A stretch of DNA of 64,000 bases from contig JBEDUK010000027.1 in the NCBI GenBank assembly GCA_040414485.1, forward strand, positions 9,208-73,207, given 5' to 3'. Origin of the DNA: Actinomycetota bacterium (GTDB taxonomy: Bacteria > Actinomycetota > UBA4738). The translations under genes were made by a program, and so were the position numbers. The notes under the pieces were generated by a model. It was not told where the DNA came from and ran no database searches. It saw only the letters and a program-made list of their open reading frames with translations. Shown here piece after piece: positions 4,056 to 33,043 of this stretch (within the stretch, counting starts at the first letter, position 1; each line of letters starts with the position of its first letter).

Positions 4056-6440
4056 TCAGCCAATGTGGCTCGATCGTATCTCGACCCTCCCACGCTGGAA
4101 GACCACGGTGATGTCCCCGGAGCGGTCGGTGCGGAAGAGCCGCATCCCGTCGCGGGCGAGCAGCGCCAGCACGCCCGGATTCGGGTGCCCGTACCGGTTC
4201 GGCTGGCCGACGCTGACCACGGCGATCCGCGCGTGGACGGCCGCGAAGAACCCGGGAAGGGACGTGGCCCCGCCGTGGTGCGGCACCTTCAGGACGGTCG
4301 CGTGCAGGTACGGCCGCTCGTGGGCGAGGAGATCGTTCTGGTTCTCCTGTTGCGCGTCGCCGGTGAACAGCACGGAGGCGTCGCCCTCGTGCACCAGCAG
4401 CACCAGCGAGTCGTTGTTCGGGTCGGATTCGGTTCCACCCCAGCAGTGTCCCGGCCCAAGCACGTCGACCCGAACGTCGGCCACGCGAAGCTCGGCGCCC
4501 GGCCGCGGATGCCGGAACGGCACGCCGCTCGCCGCGATCGCCCGAAGGAACTCCGCGTAATAGGGCGACGAGCCGTTGCAGCCTGGGTCGATGGCCAGCG
4601 CGACCGGGATGCGGGCGAGCACCACGGGCAGCCCGGCCACGTGATCCGCGTGCTGATGGGTCGCCACCAACAGGTCAAGCCGGTGGACGCCGAGCGCCGC
4701 GAGCTTCGTGGCCACCTGCGACGGATCGGGTCCGCCGTCGATGAGGATCTGCGCGCCGGCCGGCGAGCGGATCAGCGCCGAGTCCCCCTGCCCGACGTCG
4801 AAGAAGGTCACGGTGAGCGTCCCCGGCGCGCCGGCGGCGAACGCGCGTCCCCAGACCAGGACCGGAAGGAGCAACGCGGCGCCCACCACGACGCGCCTGG
4901 ACACGGTTCGGGCCGACGCGAACCACCAGCCCGCAACGCTCACCAGCGCCAGGCCGAGCAGCAGCGGAAGCACCCGGCCGGTGGTCGCGGTGATCGTCGG
5001 CAGCGGCGCCTTCGCCAGGCGGTGCGCCAGACCTTCGAGGTACCCGAGCGGCACCATCGCCAGGCGAGCTACCAGGAATCCTGCGGCGTGCCAGACGAGC
5101 CCGACGGCGGCGGCCAGGAGCCCGAGGAGCATCCCGGGCCCGACGGCCGGGTACGCCAGGACGTTCGCTGCGAGCGTGACCGTCGGCACCCAGCCGAAGT
5201 AATAGAGCAGCAGGGGCGTGACGCCGATCTGCGCCGCAATCGTGGTTCCCGCGGCGAGCGCGATGCCGCGGGGCATGAATCGAAGGCGGTCCGCGATCGG
5301 ATTCGCCATCAACGCCATGCCGGCGGTGGCCGCGACCGACAGTTGGAAGCCGATCGCGTACACGAGGGTCGGGTTGATGGCGAGCAGCGCCAGGACCGCA
5401 CCGCCCATGATGGCACCGACCGATCGCGGACGGCCCAGGAAGATCCCGAGCATGGTCAGCAGCGCCATGGCTGAGGCGCGCAGGACAGACGGTTCCGCGC
5501 GGGTAAGCAGTGCGAAGAAGACCACGCCGCCGACGCCGACGACGAGTCGGGCGCGCCTGCCGGCACCGAGCCAGAGGGCGAACCCGAGGACCGGCGCGAG
5601 GAACATGGCCAGGTTCTCGCCGGAGACGGCCAGCAGGTGCGTGAGACCCGTCGCCTTGAAGTCCTCTTCGACACCGGGGTCGAGCCGCGAGGTGTCGCCC
5701 AGGGTCAAACCCATCATCAGCCCCGCCTCCTTCGGAGGGAACACCCGCTGCAGCGAACCGCGGAACGCTCGACGCACAGCTTCCGCGACGCGAACCACGA
5801 ATCCCGACGGTGGTCCGATGTACCGAAACGTGCTCGCCGACATGGACGCGGCGAATCCCCGGTGCGTGAGGTAGACGCCGAAGTCGCCCTCGGGAAGGCT
5901 GAGCAGGCCTTCCGCGCGGATCCGATCGCCTGCGTGGAGGTGCGGGGGCGGACCCTGACCCTCCATCCAGACGGCGTCATGGACGCGGACTTCGGCGGGC
6001 CAGCCCGAAGTGGACGGCTCGACCCCCGCGACGTCGACGGGAACGGTCCAGCCGAGCGCCCCCGGCGACGGGTCGCCGGCCAGGGATCCGGTGATCTCCA
6101 CGGAACGGCCCGCCAGTCGATGCAGCGGCGATGCGAACAGGTGCACCTCGTGGATCAGGCCGTCGGCGGCGCCGAGGAGCCCGAACCCGACGACCGCCGC
6201 GCCGCCGACGGCGACCCGGCGGGCCAGGGTGGCCGAGCCGCCCCCACGGCTCCGGACTTGGCCGGGCACGGGGCGGACCGGCCGACGGGCGGCGAGCACG
6301 AGCAGCACGAGGCCGCCGGCGCCCAACGCTCCGGCGGCGACCAACGCTCCGGCGGCGACCAGCGACGCCGGCAGCCGTTGCGTGGCGAGGATCCCGACCC
6401 AGAAGCCCGCGGCCACGACCGCCAGGAACCATCCACCCAT
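4056..6440 (-). CDS. comEC: ComEC/Rec2 DNA-uptake channel with metallo-beta-lactamase domain
   Basis: Multiple TM segments, GLTHLLAVSGEN, FDVGQGD, LIDGG, THQHADH (HxHxDH), KVPHHG. Confidence 0.95.
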   Translation of the reverse strand: MGGWFLAVVAAGFWVGILATQRLPASLVAAGALVAAGALGAGGLVLLVLAARRPVRPVPGQVRSRGGGSATLARRVAVGGAAVVGFGLLGAADGLIHEVHLFASPLHRLAGRSVEITGSLAGDPSPGALGWTVPVDVAGVEPSTSGWPAEVRVHDAVWMEGQGPPPHLHAGDRIRAEGLLSLPEGDFGVYLTHRGFAASMSASTFRYIGPPSGFVVRVAEAVRRAFRGSLQRVFPPKEAGLMMGLTLGDTSRLDPGVEEDFKATGLTHLLAVSGENLAMFLAPVLGFALWLGAGRRARLVVGVGGVVFFALLTRAEPSVLRASAMALLTMLGIFLGRPRSVGAIMGGAVLALLAINPTLVYAIGFQLSVAATAGMALMANPIADRLRFMPRGIALAAGTTIAAQIGVTPLLLYYFGWVPTVTLAANVLAYPAVGPGMLLGLLAAAVGLVWHAAGFLVARLAMVPLGYLEGLAHRLAKAPLPTITATTGRVLPLLLGLALVSVAGWWFASARTVSRRVVVGAALLLPVLVWGRAFAAGAPGTLTVTFFDVGQGDSALIRSPAGAQILIDGGPDPSQVATKLAALGVHRLDLLVATHQHADHVAGLPVVLARIPVALAIDPGCNGSSPYYAEFLRAIAASGVPFRHPRPGAELRVADVRVDVLGPGHCWGGTESDPNNDSLVLLVHEGDASVLFTGDAQQENQNDLLAHERPYLHATVLKVPHHGGATSLPGFFAAVHARIAVVSVGQPNRYGHPNPGVLALLARDGMRLFRTDRSGDITVVFQRGRVEIRSSHIG
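6323..6358. repeat. 18-bp perfect tandem duplication inside comEC
   Basis: ccaacgctccggcggcga x2, in frame, in the repetitive LVAAGA-LVAAGA-LGAGG stretch. Confidence 0.85.
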
Positions 6441-24825: not shown

Positions 24826-26154
24826 CTATCGGGCGCCTGCGTCCGGGGTCCGCGGGATGACGAACCAGAACGTGGCGCCCGTGGCTTCGTCTCCGGCGCC
24901 TTCGTCTGCGACGGCGGCGCCGCCCCGGTTGCGGGCGCCGATCGTGCCTCCGTGGGCCTCGACGAGCGACTTCGCGATCGCGAGCCCCAGGCCCGCTCCG
25001 CGCGATTCGGGCGACTTCGCGAACCGGTCGAACACGCTGTCCAGGCGGTCGGGGGGGATCCCGCTCCCGGTGTCGGAGACGGTGAACCGAACCCCGGCGC
25101 CCGGGTCGGCCGGGCCGGCCGGCTCGGCCGCTCCCACAGGTTCGACCCCGACCCTCACGCTCCCTCCGGGTGGCGTGTGCCGGATGGCGTTCGCGATGAG
25201 GTTCGACAGGACTTCGCGGATCCTGACCCGGTCCACCTCGATCTCGCCCGCCGGGCCGCCTGGCCCGACGGCCAGCGCGACCCTCGCGGCCGCCGCTTCC
25301 GGCCCGTGCGCCGCGACCGCGTCCTCGGCCAGTTCGCGCGGATCGGTCGGCTCCAGCCGGAGCCTCAGCGCGCCGCTCTCCGCCATCGCCAGCATCGAGA
25401 GGTCCTCGAGCAGACGGGACATCACGCGCGTCTCCTCGAGCGCCGGCTCCAGGTGCCCGGCATCGGCGACGTAGACGCCGTCGAGGATCCCTTCGATGTT
25501 CGCCTGGATGATCGTGAGCGGCGTCCGCAGCTCGTGCGCCACGTCGGCGAAGAGCTGACGACGGACGTGCTCGTTCGCCTCGAGCCGTTCGGCCATCGCG
25601 TTGAACGACCGGGCGAGCGACCGCACCTCGCGCGGGCCGCCCGGCTGGACGCGCGCCGAATAATCGCCGGACGCGACGCGCTCGGCCGCGCCCATCACGT
25701 CGTCGATCGGGCGCGCGGTGCGCCTGGCTCCGCGCGCCGCGATGACCACCAGCACGATGATCACCACGAAGATGGCGAAGCCGAACGGCGGGCCGCCTGT
25801 CCACCGATGGGGCGGGTTCGCGCCGGAGCCATGCCAGATGGTGCTGCCGATCCAGAACAGGAACCCGCCGGCGACGAACGCCAGGCCGAACAGCGCCAGA
25901 AGGAACAGGGCGATCCTGCGGGCGAAGTGCCTGGGAACGCCCTGCCAGCCCTCACGGCCCTGCGGAGGCCACGGTTCGGATTCGGGCCACCACGGAGGGG
26001 GCCCGCCGCGCCAGGGGGGACCGCCGCGGTAGCGCCGGCCGCGCGGGGGCGAAGGCGATGGTGCGGCCGGCTCCGCCGCCGGCTCCGGCTCCGACCCCGG
26101 CTTCGACACCGGTGCCGGGTCCCCTTCGGCCCTGTCCCCCGGATCCTCAGTCAT
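24826..26154 (-). CDS. HAMP-domain sensor histidine kinase (BaeS-like)
   Basis: Two TM helices, HAMP, ADVAHELRTPL, NLIANAIRH, DTGSGI, GLGLAI. Confidence 0.93.
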   Translation of the reverse strand: MTEDPGDRAEGDPAPVSKPGSEPEPAAEPAAPSPSPPRGRRYRGGPPWRGGPPPWWPESEPWPPQGREGWQGVPRHFARRIALFLLALFGLAFVAGGFLFWIGSTIWHGSGANPPHRWTGGPPFGFAIFVVIIVLVVIAARGARRTARPIDDVMGAAERVASGDYSARVQPGGPREVRSLARSFNAMAERLEANEHVRRQLFADVAHELRTPLTIIQANIEGILDGVYVADAGHLEPALEETRVMSRLLEDLSMLAMAESGALRLRLEPTDPRELAEDAVAAHGPEAAAARVALAVGPGGPAGEIEVDRVRIREVLSNLIANAIRHTPPGGSVRVGVEPVGAAEPAGPADPGAGVRFTVSDTGSGIPPDRLDSVFDRFAKSPESRGAGLGLAIAKSLVEAHGGTIGARNRGGAAVADEGAGDEATGATFWFVIPRTPDAGAR

Positions 26155-26839
26155 CGGCGAACCGGTACCCCACGCCGTGAACGGTCAGCACGTACCGCGG
26201 GCGCTTCGGATCGGGCTCGAGCTTGCGCCGGATGTTCTTGACGTGGGCGTCGATGGCGCGCTCGTACGACTCGAAGGCGACCCCATGGACTGCGTCGAGC
26301 AGCTGCGATCTGGTGAACACGCGGCCGGGCTGCGCCGCCAGCGTGGCGACGAGCTCGAACTCCGTCGGCGTCAGTTGCACGTTCCTGCCGTCGACCGACG
26401 CCCGCATGCGCGTCATGTCGAGCGTCACACCCGCCGCGCGGATGACCTCGGGCCTGGCCACGGAGACCACTTCGCTGCGCCGAAGGACCGCGCGAACGCG
26501 AGCCACCAACTCCTTCGGGCTGAACGGCTTGACCACGTAGTCGTCGGCGCCCAGTTCCAGCCCGACGATCCGGTCCGATTCGTCCGCGCGCGCCGTCAGC
26601 ATCACGATCGGGACGTTCGACGAACGCCGGATCTCCCGCGTGACATCGAGCCCGTCGCGCCCGGGAAGGCCGAGGTCCAGGACGATCAGGTCCGGCTTCG
26701 CCGAACGCGCGCTCGACAGGCCCGCGTCGCCATCGGCCGCCACGATCACGTCGTAGCCCGCGTGCTCGAGGTAGTCGCGGGCGACCCGGGCGATCGCCAT
26801 CTCGTCCTCAACGACCAGGATCGTCTTCATTCGCGTCAC
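26147..26839 (-). CDS. OmpR-family response regulator
   Basis: ILVVEDE, VLDLGLP, GADDYVVKPF, LTPTEFEL, TVHGVGYRF. Alternative start ATG 26830. Confidence 0.95.
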   Translation of the reverse strand: MTRMKTILVVEDEMAIARVARDYLEHAGYDVIVAADGDAGLSSARSAKPDLIVLDLGLPGRDGLDVTREIRRSSNVPIVMLTARADESDRIVGLELGADDYVVKPFSPKELVARVRAVLRRSEVVSVARPEVIRAAGVTLDMTRMRASVDGRNVQLTPTEFELVATLAAQPGRVFTRSQLLDAVHGVAFESYERAIDAHVKNIRRKLEPDPKRPRYVLTVHGVGYRFADD

Positions 26840-26939
26840 CTACCTGATCCAACGTCGGTCCGTCTGTCAGCGTGGCGGACGGCAGCGGCGGTGGCAAGGC
26901 TTGTCGCCCGCCACCGCCGCTGCCGCCGTCGGTCCGTGC

Positions 26940-27335
26940 TCAGGCGCTGGACGCCGGCGGCGACGTCTCGCCTTCACGCTCGTGGGCCTCACGGTGCCAC
27001 GCCTCCATCCGCTCCCGCGGCCCGCCGGAACCCCACGGTCCCGGGCCACCGGGTCCGTACGCGCCCCAGCCCGGGCCGCCCCACCCGAGCCGCCTGGGTG
27101 CGAACGCGGCCCGCAGCAGCACGAAGACGAGGATCAGGAACAGCGGGAACAGGAACAGGCCGAACGGGAAGAAGCCCCACCCGCCGTAGTGCGGTCCCGC
27201 GTAGACGATGCGGGCACCGTGCGCCACCGCGCCGTGCGCGAATCCCGCGTGGTAGGCGCCGACGGCGATGCCGATGCCCGCGCCCACGATCAACAGCGTG
27301 AGCAGCAGGATCGCCGCCCATTTGCGATTCGACAT
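26940..27335 (-). CDS. Small Gly/Pro/Trp-rich membrane protein heading the two-component operon
   Basis: MSNRKWAAILLLTLL..., two hydrophobic segments, GGGGAG RBS, 131 aa. Confidence 0.75.
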   Translation of the reverse strand: MSNRKWAAILLLTLLIVGAGIGIAVGAYHAGFAHGAVAHGARIVYAGPHYGGWGFFPFGLFLFPLFLILVFVLLRAAFAPRRLGWGGPGWGAYGPGGPGPWGSGGPRERMEAWHREAHEREGETSPPASSA

Positions 27336-27413
27336 CTCGTACCACTCCCCTCGTCGCTCTCGGCGATCCCCCGAGGGATCGCTCATCGACACTCCCGAGG
27401 CTCGGCGCGCGCC

Positions 27414-27429
27414 GTGAACGAGCTGTGAA
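27414..27429 (-). promoter_or_regulatory. Candidate OmpR-type tandem binding site
   Basis: TTCAC-agctcg-TTCAC on the minus strand (11-bp period), about 80 nt upstream of the operon. Confidence 0.4.
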
Positions 27430-27476
27430 GGCGTCGTGGAGGTGTTCGGACCGCCCGCGGTACGATCCTGTTCGGC

Positions 27477-28706
27477 ATGATCGAACCCGAACCGGTAAGC
27501 CTGGCTGACCGATTCGCGCCCACAGATCCCGCGTTCATCGAGGACCCCTACCCCGTCTACACGGAGATGCGGGAGCGGGCGCCGCTGCTGTACCACGAGG
27601 CGACCGACCACTGGCTCGTGTCCCGCTATCGGGACGTGAACGCGCTGCTCAGGGACCGGCGCCTCGGCCGAACGTACCTCCACATGGCCTCGCACGCGGA
27701 CATGGGCCACCCCGACCCACCCGCCTTGCAGGACCCGTTCTGGTGGCTGATCAACAACGGCATCCTGGACATGGAGCCGCCGGAGCACACCCGCGTCCGG
27801 CGACTGGTGTCGAAGGCATTCACGCCGCGCACCGTCGAGCGGCTTCGGCCCACGATCCAGACGATCACCGACGAGCTGATCGACGGCGTGTCGGGCGGCG
27901 GGGAGTTCGACCTGATCGCCGACATCGCCGAGCCCCTGCCCGTGACGGTGATCGCCGAGCTGCTCGGAATCCCCGGATCGGATCGCGGCCTCCTTCGTCC
28001 GTGGTCGGCCGAGATCTGTCTGATGTACGAGCTCAATCCTTCAGAGGACTATCAGCGCCGTGCGGCCACGGCGAGCACGGAATTCTCCGAATATCTGCGG
28101 AGGCTGCTCGGCGAACGGCGGGATCGACCCGGAACGGATCTGATCAGCGAGCTCGCGCAGGTGGTCGACGAAGGAGAGCGGCTGACCGAGGGCGAGCTGA
28201 TCGGGACGTGCGCGCTGCTGCTCAACGCGGGGCACGAGGCCACGGTCAACGCGACCGGCCTGGGCTGGTGGACGCTGTTCAGACACCCGGCCGATCTCAC
28301 GCGGATGCGCGCCGATCCCGAAGCGCTCCTACCGACGGCGGTCGAGGAGCTCCTGCGATTCGATACGCCGCTGCAGATGTTCGAACGATGGGTGCTCGAG
28401 GACATCGAGCTGTACGGGCAGCGGATCGCGCGCGGCGCGGAGCTCGGGCTGATCTTCGGTTCGGCGAACCACGACCCGGCGGTGTTCGAAAAGCCCGAGG
28501 AATTGCACCTGACGCGCAAGCCGAACGAGCACCTGACGTTCGGCGCGGGCCTTCATTTCTGCCTCGGTGCGCCGCTGGCGCGGGCCGAACTGCAGGTCTC
28601 CTTCGGAACGCTGCTCAGGCGGTTCCCACACTTGGAGCCCGCCGGGACGCCTCCATGGAAGCCGAACTACATCCTGCGCGGCCTCGAGTCACTGCCGGTG
28701 CGCTAG
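27477..28706 (+). CDS. Cytochrome P450
   Basis: I-helix LNAGHEAT, EELLR (ExxR), FGAGLHFCLG heme motif. Confidence 0.96.
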   Translation: MIEPEPVSLADRFAPTDPAFIEDPYPVYTEMRERAPLLYHEATDHWLVSRYRDVNALLRDRRLGRTYLHMASHADMGHPDPPALQDPFWWLINNGILDMEPPEHTRVRRLVSKAFTPRTVERLRPTIQTITDELIDGVSGGGEFDLIADIAEPLPVTVIAELLGIPGSDRGLLRPWSAEICLMYELNPSEDYQRRAATASTEFSEYLRRLLGERRDRPGTDLISELAQVVDEGERLTEGELIGTCALLLNAGHEATVNATGLGWWTLFRHPADLTRMRADPEALLPTAVEELLRFDTPLQMFERWVLEDIELYGQRIARGAELGLIFGSANHDPAVFEKPEELHLTRKPNEHLTFGAGLHFCLGAPLARAELQVSFGTLLRRFPHLEPAGTPPWKPNYILRGLESLPVR

Positions 28707-28791
28707 GACCCGCGCCCTCTACGTCTCTTCAGGCTCCTCGTGGTCGTGGTCGTGGGACGCGTCCTCACTCTCCATGTGATGGTGCTCGCCG

Positions 28792-28809
28792 CGGGCCCGA
28801 CCGGGCCCG
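28792..28809 (-). other. Hairpin 14 nt downstream of an in-frame UGA (SECIS-like or terminator-like)
   Basis: CGGGCCC-GGUC-GGGCCCG in the minus-strand transcript. Confidence 0.45.
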
Positions 28810-28823
28810 TCAGGTGCGCGCCG

Positions 28824-29009
28824 TCAACAGCCGGGCTCGCCCGGGTGCCCGCAGCACCCCTTCCCGACGGTGAACGCCCGGGCACGGTTCTTCGCGGTCA
28901 GCGCGAGCTTCTCCCCCACGGAGGCGTCGAACGAACTCCAGTTCAGGTAGAAGTGCTCGATGTGGGAGCGGAGCGAGTGCCCGCCCTCCTCTTCCTTCCG
29001 GTGCGTCAT
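28824..29009 (-). CDS. Small Cys-rich protein ending CCGHPGEPGC, with possible UGA read-through to 28719
   Basis: 61-aa ORF 11 nt downstream of thrC on the same strand. The frame stays open for 34 more codons after the UGA. Confidence 0.7.
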   Translation of the reverse strand: MTHRKEEEGGHSLRSHIEHFYLNWSSFDASVGEKLALTAKNRARAFTVGKGCCGHPGEPGC

Positions 29010-29019
29010 GCGTCCGACT

Positions 29020-30087
29020 CTATCTGGCCGCCAGGCCCAGGTGCTGTGCGATGGCTGCCGCGTCGGCTCGGAGCGTCGCCGTCGGCTCGGCGTCGCGGTT
29101 GCCCCACTGCGGATCCTTCAGGCCGTGCCCCGTCAGGACGCACACGACCGTCGCGTCGGCAGGCAGAGAGCCGCGGCCGTGCAGCGTCAGCAATCCGGCC
29201 ACGGACGCGGCCGACGCGGGTTCGACGAACAGCCCTTCCTCGCGCATCAGTCGCCGCTGTGCCGCCAGGATCTCCTCGTCCGTCACGGCCGCGATCCCCC
29301 CACCGGAGTCGGCCGCCGCATGGAGGGCACCGTCCCACGACGCCGGGTTCCCGATCCGGATCGCCGTCGCGACCGTCTCCGGATCCGCGATCGGCGCACC
29401 GTGCACGAGCGGCGCGGCGCCCGCGGCTTGGAAGCCGAACATCCGCGGCGTCGCCGCGACCACCTCGTCGTCGGCGTATTCGCGGTAGCCCATCCAGTGG
29501 CTCGTGATGTTCCCGGCGTTCCCCACCGGCACCAGGTGCAGGTCGGGCGCCCGGCCGAGCATGTCGCACACTTCGAATGCCAGCGACTTCTGGCCCTGCA
29601 GCCGGTAGGGATTGACCGAATTGACCAGTGCCACGTCGAAGCGCGACGCGAGATCCCGCACCGCGCCGAAGGCCATGTCGAAATTCCCGTCCACCTCGAT
29701 CACCGCCGCGCCGTGCGCGAGCGTCTGCGCCATCTTTCCCGGCGCGATCCTGCCCTTCGGCACAATCACCGCGCAGGTCAGGCCGGCCTTCGCCGCATAG
29801 GCTGCCGCCGACGCGCTGGTGTTGCCGGTCGAGGCGCACACGACGGCGGCCGCCCCCTCCTCGCACGCCTTCGACACCGCCACGGTCATCCCACGGTCCT
29901 TGAACGAACCGGTCGGGTTCGCGCCTTCGAACTTCAGGTGGACCTCGCATCCGGTCTCGGCCGACAGGCGCTCGCTGAAGATGAGCGGCGTGCCGCCCTC
30001 GCGGAGCGTGACGACCGGCGTCGCGGCATCGACCGGGAGGCGGTCCGAATACTCGGTGATCACGCCGCGCCACTGGTGCGCCGTCAC
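29020..30087 (-). CDS. thrC: Threonine synthase
   Basis: EGANPTGSFKDRG (PLP lysine), CASTGNTSAS, PVGNAGN, ATAIRIGNP, LTGHGLKDP. Confidence 0.95.
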   Translation of the reverse strand: MTAHQWRGVITEYSDRLPVDAATPVVTLREGGTPLIFSERLSAETGCEVHLKFEGANPTGSFKDRGMTVAVSKACEEGAAAVVCASTGNTSASAAAYAAKAGLTCAVIVPKGRIAPGKMAQTLAHGAAVIEVDGNFDMAFGAVRDLASRFDVALVNSVNPYRLQGQKSLAFEVCDMLGRAPDLHLVPVGNAGNITSHWMGYREYADDEVVAATPRMFGFQAAGAAPLVHGAPIADPETVATAIRIGNPASWDGALHAAADSGGGIAAVTDEEILAAQRRLMREEGLFVEPASAASVAGLLTLHGRGSLPADATVVCVLTGHGLKDPQWGNRDAEPTATLRADAAAIAQHLGLAAR

Positions 30088-31373
30088 GGTTCGCCCGCCT
30101 CCACGCGGATGACCGACGCGACGCTTCGAACCACGTCCAGCCCGTCAAGCCGGTCGCGGCACGCGGCCAGCCGCCGCTCCGTGGCACGGTGCGTGATGAC
30201 CACGAGCTGCGCCTCGTCGCCGTGGCCGTCCTGCCACACCGACTTGATGGACACCTGATGTTCGGCGAACGCCGACGCGATCTCCGCGAGCACCCCTGGG
30301 CGATCGTCCACCCGAAGGAGGAAGTAGTACTGCGCGGGCAGGTCGTCCATGGGCAGGATCGCCCGGGATCGCGCCCGGGCGGCGCCCGCGGAACGCCCGC
30401 CGTGGCGCAGGTTCCGCGCCGCCTCGATCAGGTCACCCACCACGGACGTGGCCGTGGGGTCGCCGCCGGCTCCCCTGCCGGTGAGCATCAGGTCGCCGAC
30501 CCGCTCGCCGGTGATCAGGACGGCGTTGAAGCTGTGCCGAACGTCGGCCAGCGGATTGTCCAGCGGGATCATCGCGGGGTGGACCCGGACGGACACCGAT
30601 CCGTCCACGATCTCCGCGACGGCGAGCGGTTTGACGGCGTAACCGAGCCGGCGTGCATTCGCGATGTCCTCGGCGGTGACGCCCGCGATGCCCTCCCGAT
30701 GGACGTCGGCGGCCACGACCCGCGCGTCGAACGCGATCGCGGCGAGGATCGCGGCCTTCGCGGCGGCGTCGAACCCCTCGACGTCGGCGGTGGGGTCGGC
30801 CTCGGCGTAGCCGAGCTCCTGCGCCTCCGCGAGGGCGTCGGCAAGGCTCAGGCCGTCCTCCGTCATGCGGGTGAGGATGTAGTTCGTCGTCCCGTTCACG
30901 ATGCCCATCACCCGGACGATGCGCTCGCCGGCGAGGCTCTCCAGGAGCGGGCGGACCAGCGGGATGCCCCCGCCGACGCTCGCCTCGTAGAGCAGGTCCA
31001 CGTCGTTCGCGGCCGCCGCGTCCAGGAGGTCGGCGCCGTGCGTGGCCAGCAGCTCCTTGTTCGCCGTGACGACCGGCTTGCCCGACGCGAACGCCTTCAG
31101 GACCAGATCGTGCGCGGGGCGCACGCCGCCCATGACCTCCGCCACCACGTCGACGTCGCTCGCGCCGACCACGGCGTACGGGTCGTCGGTGAAGGCCGAT
31201 CCGGGAACCGGCACGTCCCGGTCGCGGCCGAGGTCACGCACCGCGACGCGGGTGACCTCCAGACGGACACCGGTTCGTAGTTCGATGTCCTGGGCATGGT
31301 CGTGGAGCATCCGCGCCACCGCCGCGCCGACGTTGCCGCACCCGAGGAGCCCCACGCGGACCGCATTCGTCAT
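30084..31373 (-). CDS. hom: Homoserine dehydrogenase with ACT domain
   Basis: GLLGCGNVG, VTANKELL, YEASVGGGIP, NGTTNYIL, EADPTADVEG, DRPGVLA. Confidence 0.96.
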   Translation of the reverse strand: MTNAVRVGLLGCGNVGAAVARMLHDHAQDIELRTGVRLEVTRVAVRDLGRDRDVPVPGSAFTDDPYAVVGASDVDVVAEVMGGVRPAHDLVLKAFASGKPVVTANKELLATHGADLLDAAAANDVDLLYEASVGGGIPLVRPLLESLAGERIVRVMGIVNGTTNYILTRMTEDGLSLADALAEAQELGYAEADPTADVEGFDAAAKAAILAAIAFDARVVAADVHREGIAGVTAEDIANARRLGYAVKPLAVAEIVDGSVSVRVHPAMIPLDNPLADVRHSFNAVLITGERVGDLMLTGRGAGGDPTATSVVGDLIEAARNLRHGGRSAGAARARSRAILPMDDLPAQYYFLLRVDDRPGVLAEIASAFAEHQVSIKSVWQDGHGDEAQLVVITHRATERRLAACRDRLDGLDVVRSVASVIRVEAGEP

Positions 31374-31900: not shown

Positions 31901-33043
31901 CTACGCCACGATCGCCGGCTCCGCGGAGCCGCCGTCAGCCGATTCCGGGGCGGCGCCATTCGCGCCGACGCCCGCGTAATGCCCCGGCCGGTCCTCCACC
32001 TCGAACACCTTCGCGTTCCGAAGGTCGAGGTGGACGCGATCCCCTTCGCCCACCGGCGGCACCGGCAGCTCGTCGTTCGAGACGTCCGCCGTCAGGTCCT
32101 GGCCGTCGGTGAGCCGAAGCCGGAGCTTCGAGGCCCATCCGAGGTTCGTGATCCGTTCGATCACCGCACTGGTGGACCCCAGCCGCGTCTGCTCGCCGGC
32201 GATCGAGATCTGGTGCGGACGCACGTACGCGTGCACGCGCACACCCTCAGCCAGGTCGTCGCCGCCGTCGCCACTGGTCCATCCGTCGGCCACCCGGACC
32301 CGGCCGCCATCCATGCGGCCCTCAAGGACGTTCGCGGCGCCGACGAAGCCGGCGACGAATCGCGTCGCCGGGCGGTTGTAGACGTCGTCCGGCGTGCCGA
32401 CCTGCTCGACCCGCCCCTGGTGCATGACCACGACCTCGTTCGCCAGTTCGAGCGCCTCCTCCTGGTCGTGGGTGACCAGCAGGCTCGTCACGCCGAGCTC
32501 GCTGTGCAGGTCGTCCAGCCAGCGTCGAAGGTCCTGCCGGACCCGCGCGTCCAGCGCCCCGAACGGCTCGTCCAGCAACAGCACGGTCGGCCGGGGCGCC
32601 AGCGCCCGCGCCAGCGCGACCCGCTGGCGCTGCCCACCCGACAGCTGGTCCGGATACCGGTCGGCCCACGGCGCCAGTTGCACCAGCCTCAACAGTTCGT
32701 CAACCCGCTTTACCGTTTCATCCTTGCCGACCTTTCGCACGCGAAGGCCGAAGGCCACGTTCTGGCGCACGGTCATGTGACGGAACAGCGCGTAGTGCTG
32801 GAAGACGAACCCGACCCGCCGCTCCTGGACGGGCGCGTTCGTCTGCTCCTCGCCGGCCAGCGAGATGCGCCCGGTGTCGGGCCGTTCGAGCCCCGCGATC
32901 ATGCGGAGGACGGTCGACTTCCCCGATCCGGACGGCCCGAGGATCGCGGTGATCTTCCCCTCTTCGGCCTCGAAGGAGACGTCCGCCACTGCGCGGAACG
33001 ATCCGAAGCTCTTGTTCAACCCCTCGACGACGATCCCGGTCAT
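31901..33043 (-). CDS. cysA: Sulfate/thiosulfate ABC ATPase
   Basis: GPSGSGKST, FVFQHYALFRHMTV, LSGGQRQR, LLDEPFGALD, TOBE-like C-terminus. Confidence 0.93.
   Translation of the reverse strand: MTGIVVEGLNKSFGSFRAVADVSFEAEEGKITAILGPSGSGKSTVLRMIAGLERPDTGRISLAGEEQTNAPVQERRVGFVFQHYALFRHMTVRQNVAFGLRVRKVGKDETVKRVDELLRLVQLAPWADRYPDQLSGGQRQRVALARALAPRPTVLLLDEPFGALDARVRQDLRRWLDDLHSELGVTSLLVTHDQEEALELANEVVVMHQGRVEQVGTPDDVYNRPATRFVAGFVGAANVLEGRMDGGRVRVADGWTSGDGGDDLAEGVRVHAYVRPHQISIAGEQTRLGSTSAVIERITNLGWASKLRLRLTDGQDLTADVSNDELPVPPVGEGDRVHLDLRNAKVFEVEDRPGHYAGVGANGAAPESADGGSAEPAIVA

Follow-up and report, generated by a model that had tools for sequence, protein, structure and literature searches.

The locus at positions 28719-29009 (minus strand) of the window, namely the whole 64,000-nucleotide stretch of soil metagenome DNA analysed in this study, raises the question of whether a small cysteine-rich open reading frame (ORF) ends at its UGA codon after 61 residues, or whether this UGA is read as selenocysteine (Sec), with translation continuing into a tail rich in His, Asp, and Glu. 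The first-pass annotation of the window had proposed the latter, with a downstream hairpin directing the recoding and a 96-residue, metallochaperone-like product carrying a CC-x7-C-U motif, and the comparative evidence obtained here strongly supports that proposal. Judged from sequence comparison, the locus is predicted with high confidence to encode a 96-residue selenoprotein with UGA recoding, not a 61-residue protein, and the product is probably metal-binding.

The statements made earlier on the sequence itself were all reproduced: the ORF of 61 residues, its UGA-C stop context, the 34 further codons in the same frame (RRAPDGPGRARGEHHHMESEDASHDHDHEEPEET) up to the TAG at 28721-28719, the 16 H, E, or D residues among the last 22 of this read-through frame, an in-frame ATG at 28775 (28775-28773), and the hairpin with its spacing. 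The stem begins 14 nt and the loop 21 nt after the UGA (the loop 24 nt when counted from the U of UGA), and no T-tract follows the hairpin. According to the bacterial selenocysteine insertion sequence (bSECIS) criteria (PMC13188914), an element should have a loop of 3-9 nt with G in the first two loop positions, an upper stem of 4-16 bp, a UGA-to-loop distance of 16-37 nt, and a minimum free energy of -7.5 kcal/mol or lower; the window hairpin, which folds alone at -14.9 kcal/mol, falls within all four limits.

A word-indexed search gave 20 homologues, 48-88 residues long and each with the invariant GCCGHPGEPGC as its C-terminal end, and a scan of one genome per prokaryotic species gave 63 loci in at least eight phyla: Actinomycetota (about 24), Chloroflexota, mostly Dehalococcoidia (20), Syntrophorhabdus and other Desulfobacterota-type metagenome-assembled genomes (7), Dormibacterota (5), Nitrospirota (3), Eubacteriales (2), Eisenbacteria (1), and Planctomycetota (1). 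Family counts of 63 given below refer to the window plus 62 complete loci, one locus (L012) being omitted as its contig ends before the stop. When 1.84 billion representative proteins were searched exhaustively with a profile, 415 clusters at 50% identity reached an E-value of 1e-3 or better. Of the 150 best representatives, about 137 stop precisely at PGC, and these are Sec-type proteins cut off at the UGA by gene callers. Sec forms account for approximately 97% of the family members, whose length ranges from 47 to 100 residues.

The strongest evidence for recoding is the codon that follows PGC, which was TGA in the window and in 62/62 complete loci, that is, in 63/63. Since the homologue search pattern lay upstream of the stop, TGA was not selected by the search. 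The next in-frame stop of the same genes was mixed (TGA in 30, TAG in 22, and TAA in 11), and TGA ended 232 of 500 neighbouring ORFs; with about 47% TGA among real stops, 63/63 is not a chance result, even if the loci represent only a few dozen independent lineages.

A perfect hairpin of 4-10 bp followed the TGA in all 63 members. The loop was GGUC in 24 of them, and most of the remaining loops were GGU- or GU-type variants. Counted from the U of UGA, the loop started at 21 nt in 12 loci and at 24-25 nt in 33 loci. In an unguided MAFFT alignment, the covariation score of the stem was 0.361 compared with 0.150 in shuffles (reached by 0/500 of them), and both-side changes were seen in six of the seven stem pairs. 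The generic bSECIS criteria were passed by 49/63 first TGAs of the family and a strict family signature by 40/63, compared with 56/500 and 5/500 for neighbouring ORF stops, 10/62 and 0/62 for the second stops of the same genes, and 108/1200 and 6/1200 for random positions. Both signs by which the first-pass annotation proposed to recognise recoding among homologues were found: the UGA was kept throughout together with the hairpin in the great majority (the 49/63 above), and Cys at the UGA position was present, although rare, as TGC in the DNA of two loci (L066 and L067). The pattern that it had named as contrary to recoding, homologues ending at PGC with any stop codon and without a conserved tail, was not observed.

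The hairpins are not intrinsic terminators, since a T-tract (at least five T in the 10 nt past the hairpin) occurred in only 1/63. Moreover, a PGRG-like peptide encoded by the hairpin recurs in loci with a stop between the TGA and the hairpin (e.g., L045, L048, L054, L056, L022, and L036), indicating that the RNA, not the peptide, is conserved in those loci.

A covariance model (R1) built from the 63 elements was used to evaluate the specificity of the element. Across 676 kb, R1 matched the expected site once in each of 60 sources and gave four weak matches elsewhere; the window hairpin scored 32.4 bits. R1 also matched two loci outside the training set (L064 and L065), both close to the window, whose own element was in that set, and gave no match in the loci of the Cys forms. 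At the fdhF locus of Escherichia coli K-12, the top match started exactly at the Sec-140 UGA with the GGUC loops aligned. A second match within the window (32277-32324, minus strand; 16.5 bits, E = 0.66) was rejected as chance because its TGA lies out of frame (GTC CTT GAG GGC) inside a 380-codon ORF.

The Cys forms provide further evidence. In four of the 150 best representatives (P0026, P0133, P0140, and P0148), PGCC leads into a tail, and three of these tails are His-rich; P0026 reads ...CCEGSSAKGHHHGEEEDVEK and P0148 reads ...CCISSGSHASGDAHPHDHQH. The two loci with TGC at the Sec position are translated with the standard code and have no GGUC hairpin. Cys forms that keep the tail and lack the hairpin are the classical signature of a selenoprotein family, and they indicate that the tail is part of the protein. 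Three database entries (P0028, P0109, and P0110) have W at the Sec position. The DNA of P0110 (L068:2001-2213) has TGA at the W position, with the read-through ...GEPGCURVEHLSGSEKHEHHHPHSHK and, as read by eye in the sequence, a hairpin UCUCCG-GUU-CGGAGA; the gene caller had therefore used a code with TGA as Trp, and such W entries represent mistranslated selenoproteins.

The sequence downstream of the UGA also behaves as coding sequence. In frame 0, His made up 9.2% of the residues after the TGA, compared with 2.1% and 1.9% in the other two frames, and at least two His in the last eight residues were found in 17/63 members in frame 0 and in none in the other frames. Past codon 11, H accounted for 24% of the residues, G for 16%, E for 13%, and D for 9%, and L, F, W, Y, and C were absent; the enrichment in His, Glu, Asp, and Gly was confined to frame 0. 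The soil relative L064, whose core is 80% identical to that of the window, has a tail of 34 codons as well, without indels; this tail differs in sequence yet is His/acid-rich and ends in EET-TAG. The spacer from the UGA to the stem shows only two nucleotide differences between the window and L064, both at synonymous third positions. The linker amino acids are identical in L065, and in L064 only residue 74 differs (Gly to Asp). The tail of L065 is five codons longer (39 codons) and richer in His (GEHDDGEHGHGEHEHGEHEHDHGPDSDG).

Contigs from three soil metatranscriptome runs covered positions 28782-28976, namely the ORF core, the UGA, and the hairpin, and ran on for 42-48 nt into sequence whose coding strand reads DDGEHGHGEH, an L065-type tail. 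Transcripts of a close L065-like relative therefore appear to pass through the hairpin into the tail, a result that concerns transcription only and for which DNA carry-over is possible.

Taken together, the TGA in 63/63, the covarying stem with its conserved loop and spacing, and the in-frame His-rich tail go far beyond chance, and chance, which the first-pass annotation had listed as an alternative, is excluded by the comparative data, as is an ordinary stop. With very high confidence, on these comparative grounds, we propose that the UGA (28826-28824) would be recoded to Sec and that translation would run into the tail. In the proposed mechanism, the mRNA hairpin 14 nt downstream would act as a bacterial SECIS element and recruit SelB with Sec-tRNA(Sec), and translation would run through the hairpin sequence (linker RRAPDGPGRARG) into the His/Asp/Glu-rich tail and end at the TAG. 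A far more speculative possibility is that, through the UGA, the selenium supply sets the ratio of the 61-residue form to the 96-residue His-tailed form.

Concerning the protein, an AlphaFold2 model built on a 49-sequence alignment predicted helices at residues 13-26 and 31-48 (pLDDT, the predicted local distance difference test score, 70-81; overall 62.7), and this central helical region is conserved too. The N-terminus is polar, and the conserved core GCCGHPGEPGC holds C52, C53, H55, and C61; what stays constant across the wider family is CC, G, PGC, and Sec. No evident signal peptide was recognised when the sequences were read, the N-termini being polar or His-rich. The product would consist of a short hairpin of two helices and, after it, a flexible C-terminal part in which two chalcogen pairs stand in the arrangement CC-G-H-P-G-E-P-G-C-U. 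Three thiolates, the selenolate, and usually His55 could together form a soft-metal site, for which Cu(I), Ni, Zn, Cd, and Hg are candidates, and the His-rich segment, C- or N-terminal depending on the member, might capture or store further ions. CC and CU motifs in other selenoproteins have been read as heavy-metal sites by Haft and Gwadz (bioRxiv 10.1101/2022.07.06.499078). A small cytoplasmic metal-binding or chaperone protein is thus our tentative functional assignment, drawn from the CC-x7-CU arrangement and the His-rich tail.

The His-rich stretch was located at the N-terminus in 7-12 loci, at the C-terminus in 11-16 loci, and at both ends in 0-3. N- and C-terminal His segments look mutually exclusive under the strict definition (0 with both), although the numbers are too small to claim this.

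Several observations weigh against the proposed recoding or the proposed function. In the MAFFT-based count, only 70% of the cells were paired, and a slide by +1 scored nearly as well, both effects arising from the presence of 3-nt as well as 4-nt loops among the aligned sequences. The generic bSECIS thresholds were failed by 14/63 hairpins, mostly those with short AU-richer stems, and the match of R1 in the fdhF control was weak (10.8 bits, E = 0.09). The 61-nt fold of the window gave z = -1.78, so that the hairpin taken alone is unremarkable at the GC content of the window. Early stops were found in 17/63 members (fewer than 10 codons past the UGA, 11 of them within four codons), and about half of the members have no His-rich segment at all, which indicates that the tail is not essential to the family. 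In the AlphaFold2 model, the Cys/Sec region and the tail were unstructured, the former with low confidence. Of 136 representatives, 119 have H at residue 55; the others (about 12%) carry N, R, or Y there. Finally, crude ORF calls and an all-against-all BLAST revealed no gene family common to more than 8/63 neighbourhoods.

The main rival to the metal-binding function accepts the same recoding and assigns the protein a redox role, in which Cys61-Sec62 would form a reversible selenenylsulfide, Cys52-Cys53 would serve as a second pair, the His tail would be accessory, and the product would act as a small thiol/selenol redox shuttle or peroxide scavenger. This is possible, although we consider it rather unlikely. 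Most uncharacterised selenoproteins are thought to be redox proteins according to the review of 119 families, the CU pair is placed by the AlphaFold2 model in a flexible, Gly/Pro-rich C-terminal segment, and a His-rich segment is absent from about half of the members. However, the protein has neither a thioredoxin fold nor a CxxU or UxxC motif, and the His/Asp/Glu-rich tails found at either end in about a third to half of the members, and kept in the Cys forms, better suit a metal, in line with the interpretation of CC and CU by Haft and Gwadz.

Read-through without Sec, in which the hairpin would stimulate near-cognate decoding of the UGA by Trp, Cys, or Arg and yield a mix of 61- and 96-residue products, is very unlikely. 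UGA-C is a weak terminator, which favours such decoding. Nevertheless, the loop, spacing, and UGA-C context match the SelB-binding SECIS of fdhF, and homologues free of TGA always have Cys at the aligned residue, a hallmark of Sec positions. In addition, the family occurs in selenoprotein-rich lineages such as Dehalococcoidia, which are among the richest carriers in BSepDB (46-49 selenoprotein genes), and tRNA-Sec lies on the same contig as the small gene in two members. In these Syntrophorhabdus loci, tRNA-Sec (anticodon UCA) was found approximately 5.4 kb downstream of the small gene (L018:11584-11678 and L030:11490-11584). The genes in between encode a LysR-type helix-turn-helix protein, an EF-hand protein, a radical S-adenosylmethionine (SAM) protein, a 23S rRNA intervening sequence (IVS) protein, and an HD-GYP response regulator, with no sel gene among them. 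The 64-kb window itself contains no tRNA-Sec. One candidate considered there, a 93-nt tRNA-Arg(CCG) called by ARAGORN at 4453-4545 (minus strand) with the anticodon at position 38, was rejected; since Rfam finds no tRNA at this site, the call is probably a false positive in GC-rich sequence.

It has also to be considered whether the product is a ribosomal peptide precursor whose Cys/Sec-rich C-terminus is modified into a cofactor or natural product, i.e., a selenium-containing compound resembling ribosomally synthesised and post-translationally modified peptides. Cofactor-type precursors are small, with a variable N-terminal part and an invariant C-terminal core, as in this family, and in L030 a radical SAM gene is found at a distance of 2 kb. 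This neighbour is not conserved, and neither a maturase nor any other family recurs in more than 8/63 neighbourhoods; the central helical region is moreover conserved as well as the core. A precursor role therefore has only a slight probability.

An ordinary stop, with the hairpin as a terminator or chance GC-rich structure and the tail as an accident of composition, is highly improbable. Gene callers do end the protein at PGC, the hairpin does lie between convergent genes, hairpins are common at this GC content (9-16% of the controls pass the generic bSECIS criteria), and the fold z-score of the window is modest. This explanation is already contradicted by the invariant TGA set against mixed real stops, the covarying stem with its loop and spacing to the TGA conserved and a T-tract almost always absent, the His enrichment in frame 0 only, the Cys forms with tails and without the hairpin, and the transcript contigs of the relative that go at least 42 nt past the hairpin.

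The separate 18-codon ORF from ATG 28775 that the first-pass annotation offered as an alternative for the His/acid-rich segment can be dismissed, despite its in-frame ATG, because L064 and L065 have no ATG at this position and their tails stay in the frame of the upstream ORF, and because core and tail run on without a break in the Cys forms.

The features of the locus with UGA recoding, together with the adjacent genes, are summarised in the following table.

Table 1. Predicted features of the candidate selenoprotein gene and its neighbours in the window.
Feature	Coordinates	Strand	Remarks
Predicted selenoprotein gene, first 61 codons	28827..29009	-	ATG at 29009; ORF ends GKGCCGHPGEPGC
UGA predicted to be read as selenocysteine (U62), Cys61-Sec62 pair	28824..28826	-	context UGA-C, as in E. 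coli fdhF
Putative SECIS hairpin	28792..28809	-	7 bp, CGGGCCC-GGUC-GGGCCCG
Parts of the putative SECIS hairpin		-	5' arm CGGGCCC 28809-28803; loop GGUC 28802-28799; 3' arm GGGCCCG 28798-28792
Linker RRAPDGPGRARG, residues 63-74	28788..28823	-	predicted to be translated from the SECIS region
His/Asp/Glu-rich C-terminal tail EHHHMESEDASHDHDHEEPEET, residues 75-96	28722..28787	-	presumed metal-binding
TAG, predicted true stop of the 96-codon gene	28719..28721	-	L064 alignment free of indels up to the TAG, breaks down just after it
hom	30084-31373	-	upstream of the small gene
thrC	29020-30087	-	Pfam PALP match
Cytochrome P450 gene, convergent	27477..28706	+	Pfam p450, E = 4e-25

The ATG of the small gene lies 10 nt past the stop of thrC, on the same strand as hom and thrC, with which the gene is probably co-transcribed. 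As the P450 gene ends 12 nt before the TAG, the apparently intergenic gap is almost wholly coding. The order hom-thrC-small gene-P450 is kept in L064 (hom and thrC at L064:436-2795, matching Pfam Homoserine_dh and PALP), and the convergent P450 arrangement also occurs on the contig of P0004. The hom and thrC genes overlap by 4 nt, and the small selenoprotein gene stands next in place of thrB; hom-thrC-thrB is the order expected in actinobacterial operons. A gene resembling O-acetylhomoserine sulfhydrylase, on reading its sequence, was seen near the small gene in L029, L036, L048, and L054. The hom-thrC genes and these sulfhydrylase-like neighbours give a weak hint of a link with Thr/Met or sulfur amino-acid metabolism. 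The recurring neighbours in the family (isocitrate dehydrogenase type, ABC ATPase, photolyase, RpoD, DnaG, MetY, and TspO) are unrelated housekeeping genes; therefore, they provide no functional lead and indicate neither a metal nor a pathway. Beyond the P450 gene, the window holds at 26147-27788 a response regulator, which from its sequence reads as OmpR-type, together with a small membrane-like ORF rich in Gly and Pro; the counterpart regulator in L064 matches Pfam Response_reg and Trans_reg_C and is followed by a histidine kinase.

The family could not be connected with any described one. Every copy looked up is publicly named hypothetical protein, and almost all of these entries break off at the UGA. 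No match was found in Pfam, NCBIfam (June 2026 release), Rfam, or PDB for the Sec, read-through, or Cys forms, a sub-threshold PsaN match being dismissed; in NCBIfam, the read-through forms gave nothing at E up to 10, and neither did the core, additional Sec forms, or the Cys forms at E up to 1, and Rfam gave no match for the window hairpin element. The literature search found no paper with the literal motif GCCGHPGEPGC and none containing the term GGUC together with SelB/SECIS. The family was not found in the May 2026 catalogue of 119 prokaryotic selenoprotein families, whose CU-motif families (SaoC, SaoL, SaoB, HgcA, MbdU, KCU-star, and a CopZ-like form) include none that could be matched to the window protein. 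The family also appears to be missing from BSepDB (111 families) and deep-Sep. We therefore regard it as a new family within a type of system that is already well known, with the reservation that it is set apart from MbdU only through the NCBIfam model of the latter. Its notable distinctive points are the very high ratio of Sec to Cys, the presence in soil Actinomycetota and Dormibacterota, and the tail encoded beyond the SECIS.

These data imply that at least 415 clusters at 50% identity are mis-annotated, with the Sec residue and the tail missing from protein databases, and that the selenoproteome gains a family not found among those catalogued in May 2026 and almost always of the Sec form, although Cys homologues are said to be numerous in most selenoprotein families. 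The family is spread over dominant soil phyla (Actinomycetota, Chloroflexota, and Dormibacterota) and anaerobes. One speculative possibility, rather doubtful at present, is that this uncatalogued, nearly Sec-obligate family binds a specific soft metal through CC-x7-CU with an affinity beyond that of sulfur alone and is, together with formate dehydrogenase, among the few reasons why its soil carriers keep the Sec machinery. A protein of about 50-100 residues with CC-x7-CU and an optional His-rich tail would be a compact model for the contribution of selenium to metal binding or redox chemistry, and since the SECIS loop is the same as that of E. coli fdhF, expression tests in E. coli are feasible.

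Among known systems, the closest for the RNA element is Sec-140 of E. coli fdhF, which has the same UGA-C context and GGUC apical loop and an element translated within the ORF. The fdhF loop starts 21 nt from the U of UGA, a spacing shared by 12 family members, whereas that of the window is 24. The proteins are unrelated, and in fdhF a U bulges from the upper stem and the lower stem is longer, whereas the family has a simple perfect stem of 4-10 bp. Unlike in fdhF, 11 family members have an ORF that stops no more than four codons past the UGA and short of the hairpin, which places the SECIS in the 3' untranslated region (UTR) there. An intrinsic terminator differs in that the hairpins of the family have no U-tract (1/63) and a fixed spacing to the TGA.

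For the protein, SaoC (NF040734) and DUF466 KCU-star (NF033934) are likewise small, have a Cys-Sec/Cys-Cys pair near the C-terminus, and are truncated at the UGA by gene callers; a simple 7-bp hairpin with a GGU loop follows, and the pairs are interpreted as metal-interacting. The window family nevertheless has no match to the NCBIfam models of SaoC, KCU-star, or MbdU (NF045648). SaoC is about 158 residues long, with a signal or lipoprotein peptide, a conserved nine-gene SAO locus, and mostly Cys forms, whereas the present family has no evident signal peptide and no conserved neighbourhood, is of the Sec form in about 97%, has its second pair, CC, upstream at a distance of seven residues, and in many cases runs on into a His-rich tail.

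In composition only, the His/Asp/Glu-rich tail beside a Cys-rich site resembles the tails of HypB, UreE, SlyD, and CooJ, bacterial metallothioneins, and Cox17, in which adjacent CC pairs bind Cu(I). None of these proteins is known to use Sec, and the window protein has neither a Pfam or NCBIfam match nor a relative in PDB that would connect it with them. The Gly-Cys-Sec on a flexible C-terminal extension recalls the Gly-Cys-Sec-Gly of mammalian thioredoxin reductase, where the adjacent Cys-Sec pair can form a selenenylsulfide. That enzyme is, in contrast, eukaryotic and uses a 3'-UTR SECIS of another type, while the window protein has no flavoprotein domain and carries its motif within a CC-x7-CU arrangement with His.

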